15,342 nt of DNA. Source: Verrucomicrobiota bacterium. Its GTDB lineage: Bacteria > Verrucomicrobiota > Verrucomicrobiia > Limisphaerales > Palsa-1400. Location: assembly GCA_049510745.1 (NCBI GenBank), contig JBEKYR010000071.1, forward strand, positions 1-15,342, read 5' to 3'. Of the stretch, positions 2,876-5,945 are shown piece by piece; positions within the stretch are counted from its first letter, which is position 1; every line of letters begins with the position of its first letter. Under the pieces are notes generated by a model that was given only the letters and a program-made list of their open reading frames with translations, searched no databases and was not told the DNA's origin. A program made the translations under genes and the position numbers.

Positions 2876-3817
2876 CTACGGAGGGTCATCTCCGTAGAAT
2901 TCAAGTCCAGTAGCTCGCCTCTTATTTGTGGCGGCCATCGTTTTAAGAGCGGCCAGAATGTCCTTGAAGATCGCATGCCGGACTGCGCCCTTCTTTGCGC
3001 CGTTGGCGTACCTCCGCCCGTCACGATACTTCTTCCACTCCGGCCGAAGGTGGAAGTCGGGCATCTCCTCCAAGATCATTTCCTTCCCCTTGCGCCAAAA
3101 TTGCAAGACAGTATCAGGCCGAATAGGGACCGGAATTGCTTCGATTCCGTTTATGAATTTGGGGAAAGGCAGCACAACGGTGCGAAGTCGTTCCTTGCGG
3201 TCAAATTCACGCCAACCTTTCTGCTGAACCTCGACAGATTCCAAATTCCGGTTCATCTCGATGCTATGGATAATTGCCCGGGCATAAATATTCGCCGCGG
3301 TGTCACTCAGAAAATAGGCTTTTGAGTCAACCAGTGGTGCGTCAGAGGTTCTGGAGCCGAGGTGCGAATCGGCTTTCATTTGGCGAACGACGGTGGCAGT
3401 CTCTGGATGGATTGAGAAGAACGCGGGTAATATTCTGCGACGCGGAGCAATTTGATCGAAGAGTTCGCGATGGCGCAGATATAATGAAAGAACATCACGA
3501 GCGGCGCTTGTCGCGATGGCGTATAAAGTCTCTGCGGCCTTCAAGTCATTTTCCTTGTAAATGCGATTGTCCAATTCTTGAAGGATCATATTGGCCTTTG
3601 TTCCCTCAGTCTCCTGCCGCCCCCAGAGAAAGTCATCCGTGTCATTTAGCTGCAACTCGCAAGTCCTGGCAATATGATCATCCACACCCCAGCTCTCAAA
3701 GTTCGGATTTGATGTCCCTCGGACAGTATAGCCGACTAGGTCCACAAAGCGCTTATGCGAAGGCCAATAGCAGGCATTCGCGGCTTTGGCCGTCTTGACA
3801 TCTTTTCGTTTTTGCAC
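2876..3817 (-). CDS. Hypothetical protein (313 aa, no family recognised)
   Basis: Long ORF co-oriented with its neighbours; GTG start preceded by AGGAG; protein-like composition. Its TAG stop overlaps the right inverted repeat of the MITE. Confidence 0.75.
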   Translation of the reverse strand: MQKRKDVKTAKAANACYWPSHKRFVDLVGYTVRGTSNPNFESWGVDDHIARTCELQLNDTDDFLWGRQETEGTKANMILQELDNRIYKENDLKAAETLYAIATSAARDVLSLYLRHRELFDQIAPRRRILPAFFSIHPETATVVRQMKADSHLGSRTSDAPLVDSKAYFLSDTAANIYARAIIHSIEMNRNLESVEVQQKGWREFDRKERLRTVVLPFPKFINGIEAIPVPIRPDTVLQFWRKGKEMILEEMPDFHLRPEWKKYRDGRRYANGAKKGAVRHAIFKDILAALKTMAATNKRRATGLEFYGDDPP

Positions 3818-3830
3818 AGATTCTCCTGTC

Positions 3831-3859
3831 TCTTTCCCAGTTTCAGAATTTCAGCTTTT
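3831..3859 (-). repeat. CTGAAA junction motif, copy B
   Basis: Minus strand AAAAGCTGAAATTCTGAAACTGGGAAAGA is 25/29 identical to copy D (6028-6056). Confidence 0.7.
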
Positions 3860-3861
3860 AA

Positions 3862-3891
3862 CACAATGGCCGTGGCGTCCACCACAATCAT
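3862..3891 (-). pseudogene. vapC: Truncated PIN-domain (VapC/FitB-like) toxin, first ~10 codons only
   Basis: ATG at 3891 overlaps the antitoxin stop (ATGA) and reads MIVVDATAIV, the canonical PIN first strand with its catalytic Asp. It then enters the CTGAAA repeat, and the frame closes at 3736 after 51 aa with a non-PIN tail. Confidence 0.72.
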
Positions 3892-4127
3892 TTCCGTCCC
3901 TCCCGGATCGCGGCCCGCGTTTCGGCCAGTGACAAGCGCGCCTTCGATGGAATTGAAAGGATGACGCGGCGCAACTCCGATTCGCTCATGCGCGGAGCGT
4001 CCAGGGCGTTTTTCAAAACGACGATGGTTTCCGAATTGAGGCTGCGCTTGTGGGCTGCGGCGCGCTCACTGAGGGCCTGGTGGACCTCAGCCGGACAATC
4101 CCAGATTGTAAGGCAGACTGACTTCAT
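3888..4127 (-). CDS. FitA/Arc-like ribbon-helix-helix antitoxin (VapB-type)
   Basis: 79 aa. MKSVCLTIWDCPAEVHQALSERAAAHKRSLNSETIVVLKNAL fits the LTIRxxPxEVHxALxxRAxxHxRSLxxE RHH pattern. It ends RAAIREGRK and is coupled to a PIN-type start. Confidence 0.88.
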   Translation of the reverse strand: MKSVCLTIWDCPAEVHQALSERAAAHKRSLNSETIVVLKNALDAPRMSESELRRVILSIPSKARLSLAETRAAIREGRK

Positions 4128-4133
4128 GCGGCC

Positions 4134-4154
4134 ATTATAGTGCATGCGACTGCA
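4134..4154 (-). promoter_or_regulatory. -10 box and putative autoregulatory operator of the TA operon
   Basis: Perfect TATAAT (4134-4139, minus) 6 nt before ATG 4127, with no Shine-Dalgarno. TGCA-N6-TGCA inverted repeat at 4141-4154. Confidence 0.55.
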
Positions 4155-4182
4155 AAATGAAAGCGCAATTTCGGCACGGCCT

Positions 4183-4195
4183 CAATTTCAGTTTT
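4183..4195 (-). repeat. CTGAAA junction motif, copy C (partial)
   Basis: Minus strand AAAACTGAAATTG is identical to 13 nt of copy D and lies 4 nt from the hairpin array. Confidence 0.5.
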
Positions 4196-4199
4196 CCTT

Positions 4200-4372
4200 G
4201 GCCCGTGAAATCGGCTTGATATTTCACTGAGCCTTGGCCCGTGAAGTGCGGAGCTACTTCACCGGCCGAGGCCCGTGATGTCTTCAGTTTGCTACTTCAC
4301 CGGCCCGTGAAATACCCTGGTCTATTTCACTGGGCATCGGCCCGTGAAATGGCCTCGACTATTTCACAGGGC
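4200..4372. repeat. Tandem array of five palindromic units GGCCC-GTGAART-(8-12 nt)-AYTTCAC-N-GG
   Basis: Units start at 4200, 4236, 4270, 4302 and 4339. Stems are GTGAAAT/ATTTCAC (three units), GTGAAGT/ACTTCAC and GTGATGT/ACTTCAC. All loops differ. Confidence 0.9.
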
Positions 4373-4376
4373 AGCC

Positions 4377-4425
4377 CTCCGTTCTCTAGCCTCTGGCTTC
4401 TGACCTCCGACTTCTGACCTCTGCT
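4377..4425. repeat. Degenerate heptamer tandem repeat (7 units, YTCYGAC-like)
   Basis: CTCCGTT CTCTAGC CTCTGGC TTCTGAC CTCCGAC TTCTGAC CTCTGCT, directly downstream of the O-antigen ligase stop. Confidence 0.75.
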
Positions 4426-5945
4426 CAAGAATTGTGGGACAAGGTGAAAAGCGCCGCACACAGGACAAGGAAAAGAAAAACTACGGAATAAATTTGAAAT
4501 GGGAAATCGTATCGCGCATAAAACAGGCAGCCGGCCAAAGCAGCCCAGAATAGCAGCATCAAATACCAGGAACCGTGAATGCCGCGCGCCACAAACCAGT
4601 GGGAGAGCGCGATGAAAAGGGCCAACGCAATCAACACGCTGCCCAGCACCCCGAATGTAATCAGCGTTTCCAGCCAGTCGTTGTGGAGTTGTTCAGGCCA
4701 ATAGTCTTCCATGTTAGACCGATAGAGCTGAAATAGCACCCCGAACGTTCCAGGCCCAGTTCCGAATAACGGGCAATCGTCCGCCATCGGACGAGCTATA
4801 TCGTAAAAATTATTTCTACCTTCCAAATTCATTTCAAATTGATGTTCTTCGAATCGTGGCGCCAGTTTGTTCCATTCGATGCATGCACTCAACCCCAGAA
4901 CCACCGCCACAGCAACAACGATACCGACCTTGGTCTGGCGGTCCCCTTTGTGTTGGACACTCCACAGGACCACCGCCGCCACCGCCAGATTCATCACTGC
5001 CACAACCGCCCCAAGCCGGCTGGCGGAAATAATTGGGCACGCTGCCATGAGCATCGCGCACACCAGAATCATGTGCCGGGCGCGCAGCCCAAACGCTTTG
5101 CTGTCGCGCAAACCGCGCCGGGCCGCTCGCTCCAGGCTCCACCACAGACCCAACGACACTGGCCACAGCAAGTTGAAGTATTGCGCCGCATTGGAGCGGT
5201 AGGCGTACGGGCCGAACTGGTCGAACGCATCCTGGTTCGTATGCGTTGGCATGACAAAGAGGAGATAAGGCGTTCCATTCAGGCGCTGGAGAATGGATTC
5301 AACTCCCAGGAGCCCGCCGTTAACACTTAAAACCCAAAGCAGCCGCCTTAGACGATCCGGCAGGAGAGATGCACGGCGCCCTTTGGAATTGAAAGGTTGG
5401 CTTCGTTCAGCCAGCTCTTCCGCGCTGGTTTTTCCGAGAAGCCAGTCGCGCAGTGCCCAAAATGAAAGGGCCATCGCCAGATAATTATAGAAAGCTGACC
5501 AGGAACTGGATTGGGCATAGCTGTGTGGAAGCCAGGAAATGACGTCGTGATACTCGAACGTGGCGGTCTCACGATTGTACGTGACCCGGGCGTTCAAGGC
5601 GCTAGCCAGGCAATAACCAAGAATAATCGCGGTCAAGATCGCCAGAGCTTGGGTGAGAACGCGTTGGGCTGAAAACTCGTCTCGGGAATCAGATTGATCT
5701 TCGATGCCGCGCTCGCCCCATCGCGGATTGCGATAGCCAGTCAAAAAGCGGATAGCCAGCTTGATCGCCAAGAAGAAACCCGCCAGATAACCGACTCCGT
5801 TCATCACCCAGATGGACCAAAGTTGGGTGGTGCCGAAAGCCCAGGGACTGAAGATCACCATGAAGTAGAACAACTTCTCTGATGCATCGTCACACACCCG
5901 GTGCATCCGCAACATTCGCAACGAAAGACTTAGGGGTCTGAGCAT
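4425..5945 (-). CDS. O-antigen ligase / Wzy_C family membrane protein
   Basis: 506 aa with many hydrophobic segments and the motifs FGPYAYRSNAAQYF, SASRLG, PLFGTGPGTF, HNDWLETLITFGVLG and DFPFQI. Confidence 0.9.
   Translation of the reverse strand: MLRPLSLSLRMLRMHRVCDDASEKLFYFMVIFSPWAFGTTQLWSIWVMNGVGYLAGFFLAIKLAIRFLTGYRNPRWGERGIEDQSDSRDEFSAQRVLTQALAILTAIILGYCLASALNARVTYNRETATFEYHDVISWLPHSYAQSSSWSAFYNYLAMALSFWALRDWLLGKTSAEELAERSQPFNSKGRRASLLPDRLRRLLWVLSVNGGLLGVESILQRLNGTPYLLFVMPTHTNQDAFDQFGPYAYRSNAAQYFNLLWPVSLGLWWSLERAARRGLRDSKAFGLRARHMILVCAMLMAACPIISASRLGAVVAVMNLAVAAVVLWSVQHKGDRQTKVGIVVAVAVVLGLSACIEWNKLAPRFEEHQFEMNLEGRNNFYDIARPMADDCPLFGTGPGTFGVLFQLYRSNMEDYWPEQLHNDWLETLITFGVLGSVLIALALFIALSHWFVARGIHGSWYLMLLFWAALAGCLFYARYDFPFQIYSVVFLFLVLCAALFTLSHNS

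Follow-up and report, generated by a model that had tools for sequence, protein, structure and literature searches.

A tandem array of five bulged hairpins in a heptamer tract of a Verrucomicrobiota genome belongs to a dispersed cross-phylum family of ~36-nt repeats

Five short hairpins with similar stems and different loops stand head to tail beside a polysaccharide gene in the stretch of DNA analysed here (the window, 15,342 nt, which is the entire contig C71 of genome G000), and the question is whether they were placed there by insertion of a small mobile palindrome, by copying during host repair, or as a template for small RNAs. Our analyses make it highly probable that the array consists of five copies of a non-autonomous mobile palindrome of ~36 nt, piled up at one heptamer-tract site by repeated arrival of distinct copies beside a resident copy and afterwards altered by small deletions and point damage.

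The array and its surroundings

The array occupies positions 4197-4372, with left arms starting at 4202, 4238, 4272, 4304, and 4341, periods of 36, 34, 32, and 37 nt, and loops that all end in T (Table 1). A sequence-only reading of this DNA had given the units, periods, and loops correctly but placed the start at 4200; with the unpaired 5-nt tails on the 5' side included, the boundary lies at 4197. It had also assigned GTGAART and a GCCC/GGGC outer stem to the units, whereas units 1 and 3 are damaged, unit 1 ending in GAG and unit 3 reading GTGATGT, and units 2 and 3 each lack one G. The CGAGG tail of unit 3 is a junction form that recurs in other arrays, and this unit received no covariance-model score.

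Table 1. Features of the array and its neighbourhood (positions in the window)
Feature	Position	Strand	Description	Covariance model (bits)
FitA-like ribbon-helix-helix antitoxin gene	3888..4127	-	70 nt from array; PF22513, E 3e-8, on longer ORF 3888-4145	
Partner toxin gene, first seven codons	3870..3891	-	match to homologous L607 and L429 genes ends here	
Host heptamer tract, left part	4183..4196	+	two units, last base is the C target base	
Unit 1	4197..4232	+	tail CTTGG, A-T type stem, 9-nt loop, T bulge, outer stem damaged	40.4
Unit 2	4233..4266	+	tail CTTGG, G-C type stem, 8-nt loop, 3' end minus one G	31
Unit 3	4267..4303	+	tail CGAGG, one stem mismatch, 12-nt loop, last GG common with unit 4	
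Unit 4	4302..4335	+	no tail, A-T type stem, 10-nt loop, T bulge, outer stem intact	33.9
Unit 5	4336..4372	+	tail ATCGG, A-T type stem, 10-nt loop, A bulge	33.4
Host heptamer tract, right part	4373..4421	+	seven degenerate 7-mers, phase matching left part	
O-antigen ligase/polymerase (Wzy_C) gene, polysaccharide locus	4425..5945	-	PF04932; stop codon 53 nt from array	
Matching contig, run X4	3459-4949		0 differences	
Matching contig, run X7	4212-4426		0 differences	
Matching contig, run X13	4228-4491		0 differences	
Matching contig, run X8	4264-4627		0 differences	

The left-arm 9-mer occurs 57 times in the 5.6-Mb genome, and five occurrences within 180 nt correspond to a Poisson probability of ~5e-18. 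Folded as DNA, the array stretch gave a z of -5.8, with none of 200 shuffles as low, and these two values together exclude chance. When units were folded singly, units 2, 4, and 5 were significant (z -3.1, -4.2, and -3.9), and units 1 and 3 were no better than shuffles (z -1.3 and -0.2). Contigs from four other public runs (2017-2025; 24 were listed) match the array without a difference, so it is no assembly artefact. These runs show no visible growth of the array, a weak point, since contigs drop rare variants. The runs holding this DNA are peat or wetland metagenomes, and the closest arrays are found in records titled Verrucomicrobiota from peat, which makes a peat-dwelling Verrucomicrobiota the probable source. 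In the 5.6-Mb genome, no further copy was retrieved by patterns or by the covariance model, which scored 150 of 1840 candidates and misses unit 3. Rfam offered no family for the array, its single match being due to chance (MIR6146, 19 bits against a cut-off of 59). No host function has been shown for the five copies, and in this genome the array looks like inert passenger DNA.

The array lies exactly in phase within its tract of degenerate 7-nt repeats, and genome G000 holds 28 heptamer tracts stronger than this one. Its neighbours are the wzy and fitA genes; no promoter or terminator match was found within 4050-4500, and the Pfam and NCBIfam matches of the window ORFs include no effector gene. 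Homologous fitA cassettes carry five tandem units (the window), a nested array upstream (L607), or one unit upstream (L429); unit number, which the sequence-only reading had suggested comparing across strains, differs among these cassettes, and the array is unchanged in the contigs of the four runs. An empty allele of the exact site was not found among relatives, the paralogue, or the four other runs: neither tract nor array accompanies the Wzy gene of G017 (78% identical) or a paralogue on contig C75 (67%), both of which have other neighbours, and the fitA region had no full match among 300 relatives.

Several minor features were observed around the array. At 3835-3891, the toxin gene that follows fitA, which we presume to be of the PIN type from an N-terminal motif (there is no family match), resembles the L607 and L429 genes for seven codons only and gives way to a short heptamer-like remnant, leaving an orphan antitoxin. 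Between a GT4 gene and fitA there are two ORFs without Pfam or NCBIfam matches (1540-2451 and 2876-3817), the former having DNA relatives in L436, beside a unit, and in L396. In view of these relatives, the segment 1500-4400 may be a cargo block within the polysaccharide locus. In other Verrucomicrobiota exosortase/polysaccharide loci (L428-L607), heptamer tracts divide many small toxin-antitoxin, ORF6N, and four-helix-bundle genes, and the tract-separated genes resemble a cassette array without attC sites.

A dispersed family with a common plan

The hairpin unit is a dispersed cross-phylum repeat of ~36 nt, made up of a 5-nt tail and a bulged hairpin. A two-arm pattern retrieved at least 122 stretches from GTDB, in records titled Desulfobacterota, Chlorobium, Cloacimonadota, Bacteroidota, WOR-3, Patescibacteria, Planctomycetota, and Verrucomicrobiota, and 95 of these listed matches have the family form. 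The same pattern found 39 stretches in viral contigs, some of them by chance, and plasmid and phage record sets gave no unit match. Most copies are singletons. Five genomes, chosen because they held the unit, contain 72, 24, 19, 18, and 15 copies against none for the reversed-pattern control, and inside any one of these element-rich genomes the loops are near-identical. The distribution is patchy in the window's order, where 6 of 301 genomes hold the unit. For the window's own subtype, a further 103 stretches were found in GTDB and at least 138 in metagenomes, giving 240 distinct copies with 150 different loops. The sequence-only reading had suggested scanning for both singletons and arrays, and both are indeed present in many genomes, while G000 has this locus only. 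Open frames of at least 300 codons (mechanically called) contain 17 of 343 copies, including exosortase genes (L037, L423). A tandem-junction pattern run over GTDB proved too loose, with a real unit in 2 of 120 stretches. The viral contigs L169-L207 carry mostly an A-bulge variant with GTGGAGT/ACTCCAC arms, which forms a tandem pair once (L184).

The conserved region extends from five bases 5' of CCCG to one base 3' of GGG. The plan is an X1-X5 tail followed by CCCGTGRRRT, the loop, AYYYCAC, the bulge, GGG, and N', the last base pairing with X5. The change from GTGAAAT/ATTTCAC to GTGAAGT/ACTTCAC had been called compensatory, and across the family this holds, the A-T/G-C position being Watson-Crick in 233 of 240 copies. 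Among 56 selected copies whose loops measure 9 nt, four of the eleven stem pairs vary on both sides (51 cells against 17.9 after shuffling), and the remaining seven pairs, set by the search pattern, are uninformative on covariation. The outermost X5:N' pair, absent from the search pattern, is Watson-Crick in 61 of 74 pyrimidine-bulge copies against 29 expected, which fixes the register of the bulge. Within the tail, X1:X4 is T-A in 41 and C-G in 40 of 111 copies, and the tails found across the family include CTTGG, CCTGG, CTCGG, TTTAC, CTTGC, and others.

The loops, described earlier as unique, are so within the array, but other loci contain three of the five, either exactly or with one edit. 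The unit 3 loop is found exactly in L623 and in the L484 array, and three further loci have it with one edit (none of 200 shuffles came as close); the unit 5 loop is one edit from a common family loop (3 of 200), and the unit 2 loop has a match at one edit (23 of 200). Shuffle tests on this family, including that on the stem pairs, overstate, since its copies are related by descent and its lineages are not independent. The locus L623, which shares the unit 3 loop, could come from the same population as the window.

This recurrence bears on the second origin put forward in the sequence-only reading, namely a processed small-RNA or guide-like array. In the form considered here, the array would be transcribed and processed into ~35-nt guide or regulatory RNAs in a TIGR-like or CRISPR-like manner. 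Stem-loop units of ~36 nt and in-frame tolerance also occur in stem-loop TIGR arrays, where each unit has two 9-nt spacers bounded by box C and box D (10.64898/2026.09.09.750476). In addition, a comparison with 276 loops gave nothing close to those of units 1 and 4. However, a hairpin unit has one variable segment instead of two spacers, the whole array contains one box C-9 nt-box D interval, and the 94% complete genome G000 has no Nop-family match (PF01798, a profile that may miss divergent Tas). The family consists mostly of singletons with loops common to several genomes, the window has no effector gene, and the array is without promoter or terminator matches nearby and is the same in the four runs. 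The recurrence of three of the five loops and an orientation that follows the tract strand and not transcription make a guide or small-RNA array unlikely, and with the other observations we allow it only the slightest likelihood. CRISPR arrays have identical repeats, unique spacers of even length, and cas genes; here, 0-5 nt separate the hairpins, the 8-12 nt loops recur, and none of the 15 window ORFs matches cas. The attC sites of integrons have the consensus boxes RYYYAAC and GTTRRRY, which are found here on neither strand, and the units show no association with integron integrases. The sequence-only reading had rightly set the array apart from both systems.

Insertion sites, nesting, and candidate routes of movement

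Cutting out the segment from the tail to N' restores the 7-nt period in 95 of 240 copies (27 and 23 at offsets of +/-1, at most 8 at any other), and restores the heptamer phase in the window too. The tract heptamers that carry such phase-preserving inserts are unrelated in sequence. Pyrimidine-rich sequence flanks 221 of 232 GG-type copies, whose orientation follows that tract strand. In 44 of 74 copies across phyla, N' is identical to the base that stands 5' of the insert (25.8 expected), and in the window's subtype this 5' base is C in 224 of the 240 copies. All four bases occur as the shared junction base, each with a complementary X5 (C 169, G 24, A 5, T 3; n = 273). The junction rule is kept in only 24 of 44 copies with X5=C and 5 of 16 with X5=T, and the A-bulge class is without it (6 of 37; 7.8 expected).

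Some copies were inserted in unrelated unique DNA with one shared base, and others in hairpins. For example, at L150 a unit lies in the stem of a variant unit, which in turn occupies the hairpin repeat belonging to a Y1 gene, the shared bases being G and A; L013 and L047 present similar clean insertions into foreign hairpins. When host-hairpin restoration was scanned over every offset, the proposed ends did not stand out (20 there, up to 28 elsewhere; n = 404), and the foreign-hairpin insertions are therefore cited as individual cases only. One subtype is nested in another at L241, L601, and L603, and units found in loops of their own kind were inserted after C in 35 of 38 cases. Once the inner unit is peeled away, the host loop measures 2 or 5 nt in 18 of 27 cases, against 1 of 307 intact loops of 6 nt or less, which indicates slippage or replacement. 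The region L013:1290-1560 contains a run of partly nested stem variants (GTGAGAT, GTGGGAT, and GTGAAGT). The Y1 gene lying ~200 nt away is flanked by hairpins of its own, which differ from these variants.

Across 107 clusters (both strands counted), arrays at other loci take tandem, nested, or unbalanced forms, and the unequal arm counts of L640 (five left, three right) and L130 (two left, five right) show that arm duplication also shapes arrays. The earlier argument against slippage was thus too strong. The serial insertion of a small palindromic mobile unit at a hotspot, which the same reading had proposed, is borne out by the dispersed singletons and arrays, the defined ends, the nesting, and the differing unit numbers beside homologous fitA genes.

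The same element might spread with no dedicated enzyme, host repair or replication (template switching, microhomology-primed patching, and gene conversion among tracts and hairpins) scattering the copies and arm slippage enlarging the arrays. The unbalanced arrays and short residual loops are consistent with this route, as are the lack of a mobiliser linked to the units, the dependence on heptamer tracts seen in the pyrimidine-rich flanks of GG-type copies, and the Chlorobium copies in which the unit replaces four loop bases of the host hairpin. At L067, moreover, the junction base is G, a base found there in none of the 75 empty host hairpins of that genome, as if it had been co-copied from the donor, and the CGAGG junction is the reverse complement of a left end, as fold-back copying would presumably produce. 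Against it stand the exact phase-preserving ends in tracts of unrelated heptamer sequence, the insertions with one shared base in unrelated unique DNA and foreign hairpins, and the bulge and 5-nt tail, which are kept across phyla while loops and stem pairs vary and so suggest recognition by a protein. On balance, we consider spread by host repair somewhat unlikely. In the Chlorobium genome G062 (L262-L265), the hairpin whose four loop bases are replaced by the A-bulge variant is REP-like and of the CGTC type, and the same spot is also taken by related hairpins with other stems.

The search for a mobiliser covered several sets of loci. The sequence-only reading had anticipated a consistently co-occurring HUH, recombinase, Nop-domain, or RT protein, and none was found in cis at the unit loci scanned. 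Y1 genes occur in 2 of 293 unit loci; conversely, a unit lies near 1 of 37 Y1 loci (from 6 genomes), there inside that Y1 gene's own different hairpin. No transposase, integrase, recombinase, or RT was detected at E 1e-7 in 144 of the 211 nearest ORFs (G061 loci, already identified ORFs left out), and the Pfam search of neighbours gave one Y1_Tnp in 196 of 207 listed ORFs plus 11 ORFs from six other loci. Among 38 long arm pairs, none encloses a gene as a matched pair, and no gene-bearing parent with these ends was encountered. Recurrent neighbours include exosortases, glycosyltransferases, toxin-antitoxin pairs, ORF6N, and four-helix-bundle genes. A link to integron integrases, apparent in five hand-picked genomes, vanished against an order-wide control, full-length TIGR02249 being present in 111 of the 301 genomes of the order and in none of the six unit holders in that sample; outside it, an integron integrase was found in G027, G061, and G063, with fragments at contig ends in G034. 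In G000, tandem copies of a common non-palindromic repeat, unrelated to the unit, precede two long Y1-domain genes (C8:660-986 and C6:131326-131649).

The four-helix-bundle genes (TIGR02436) lie in 17 of the 293 loci, 40 to 2765 nt from the unit, and one of them has a weak Avd match (E 1.7e-4, below the cut-off). They would suit movement by way of an RNA copy that is reverse transcribed or serves as a template for repair, with possible help from the four-helix-bundle (23S-IVP, Avd-like) proteins of heptamer-flanked cassettes. An RNA route has reportedly been proposed for the Nostoc SDRs. The S23p ORF of the Coxiella intervening sequence is flanked by heptamer repeats (PMC4990558). However, the units show no link between orientation and transcription (27 sense and 20 antisense for the GG type, 8 and 16 for the other types), there is no RT among the scanned neighbours, and the six four-helix-bundle genes of G000 are all off the array contig, one of them sitting between two unit-free heptamer tracts, so that the gene link may be to the tracts and not to the hairpin. 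We regard the RNA route as quite improbable.

The footprints are not uniform among subtypes, which is evidence against one clean mechanism. In G061, a 3-nt direct repeat (CTA, CTT, or CCA, varying among copies with the same loop) borders all 16 CTWGC-type copies and none of the 27 GG-type ones. The former would accord with an ultra-short MITE moved by a DDE transposase with a 3-nt target duplication; the window's units, however, are of the GG type, no gene-bearing parent has these ends, and a length of 36 nt probably sets the ends too close for a paired-end complex, all of which makes a DDE origin highly improbable. The CTWGC-tailed subtype of G061 (L208-L247) also has an extra C, a mismatch and not a bulge, and is inserted in unique DNA.

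Movement in trans by a HUH/Y1-like strand-transfer enzyme is the mechanism that we favour, without rating it as probable outright. The strand that carries the tail would fold while single-stranded, and its hairpin would be read by an enzyme encoded at another place, of the HUH/Y1-like kind that acts on REPs and IS200/IS605 ends. This enzyme would cut 3' of N' and, without target duplication, join the unit to the 3' side of a target base that matches N'. The tail may serve as a guide, in which X5 would pair either with N' or with the target base, and X4 would pair with X1. We favour this enzyme class because of the bulge, the 5' tail, the strand-specific orientation, the absence of duplication in the window's subtype, and the way X5:N' and X4:X1 fit the guide rule of REPs; like the enzyme class, the single-stranded intermediate and the tail's role as a guide are inferred. 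Under the REP rule (PMC8266576), the cut site has its first base paired by the fourth guide base and its second by the third (GTGG with CC, GTAC with GA/GT), and a stem bulge is required for TnpA-REP activity. The X1:X4 and X5:N' covariation appears to fit this rule at the left junction only, and two old lineages could give it too; the base 3' of the insert follows the rule poorly.

A bolder version, which we judge unlikely, would make the unit a transposon of ~36 nt, present across phyla and consisting of one hairpin, with a 5-nt tail that picks the insertion base by pairing and has been retargeted in nature to each of the four bases. The enzyme moving it in trans would be one that has so far been linked to no mobile element and may be encoded in heptamer-flanked cassettes. 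If this were true, the same machinery could explain other tiny hairpins in heptamer tracts and the toxin-antitoxin cassettes found there.

Relation to known repeats and significance

The closest known systems are Nostoc SDR4-6 and the REP/BIME elements. Both SDR4-6 of Nostocaceae and the unit are very small gene-less repeats with precise insertion. Described by Elhai and collaborators in 2008, SDR4-6 reportedly insert in heptamer tracts, are tolerated in frame, and keep their structure while their sequence varies, like the unit, and are said to measure 21-27 nt against its ~36 nt. Precise insertion in heptamer repeats or at a fixed short site, reportedly typical of SDR4-6, is found for the unit as well. 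The unit, unlike SDR4-6, forms tandem and self-nested arrays, a comparison that takes SDR4-6 by description and not by sequence. SDR5 inserts between bases 3 and 4 of HIP1, as cited in PMC4390886, PMC5861425, and PMC3116915.

The REP, BIME, and REPIN elements (TnpA-REP/RAYT) resemble the unit in being short bulged palindromes with a conserved 5' foot, in their high copy number and clusters, and in their insertion in frame within genes and into other palindromes (PMC8266576, PMC6006769, PMC3733652, PMC3116915). The unit is, like a REP, a short imperfect palindrome dispersed in many copies. The sequence-only reading had held that the array does not fit the REP layout; GTAG is indeed absent, but unit and REP are laid out alike, each having a bulged hairpin with a short 5' tail at its foot. 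The REP foot is GTAG/GTGG or CGTC and REPs stand in inverted doublets, whereas the foot of the unit is a variable 5-mer (CYYGG, TTTAC, CTTGC, and others) and its copies are head-to-tail or nested. A REPtron, i.e., a tnpA-REP gene flanked by unit repeats, was not found in the 37 Y1 loci from 6 genomes or in the 293 unit loci, and a term search of the supplements of PMC6006769 and PMC3733652 returned no unit motif. With no GTAG/GTGG or CGTC foot, and no REPtron found in these loci, the unit falls outside the REPs.

The insertion sequence IS608, like the window's subtype of the unit, is not known to make a target duplication. According to PMC6006769 and PMC8266576, the ends of IS200/IS605 elements (IS608, ISDra2) share with the unit an imperfect hairpin with an unpaired base, a short 5' sequence that may guide the cut, and insertion 3' of a fixed base. 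In contrast, they have two ends and a tetranucleotide target, and the unit has a single hairpin, no tnpA, and a one-base target with heptamer context; none of the 38 long arm pairs is a pair of subterminal hairpins enclosing tnpA/tnpB, and membership in this group was rejected. The 23S rRNA intervening-sequence/four-helix-bundle cassettes (TIGR02436, PF05635; PMC4990558) have the heptamer-tract habitat in common with the unit, which, unlike them, has no ORF inside it and no fixed link to rRNA or a four-helix-bundle gene. A literature search by motifs and class found the family undescribed within its scope, which excluded subscription journals and bioRxiv supplements and compared SDRs by description only, so that the unit may yet match an SDR.

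The unit works like a REP or an SDR: it is a very small mobile palindrome, ordinary in kind and unusually informative on ends and target choice. How repeats shorter than 40 nt move has been a standing question since the Nostoc SDRs were described, and this family provides hundreds of copies with defined ends, natural tail and junction variants, and nested series that order events. It thereby makes sub-40-nt movement a specific biochemical question, namely cutting 3' of N' and its dependence on X5 and the bulge. Annotation is affected too: the arrays look like guide-RNA arrays in both their size and their shape, and exosortases and other proteins gain spurious peptides from in-frame copies. Finally, in a Patescibacteria record, double-hairpin copies (L006:557-621 and 1501-1565) flank two type IV secretion pilin genes and adjoin a Phd/PIN pair.
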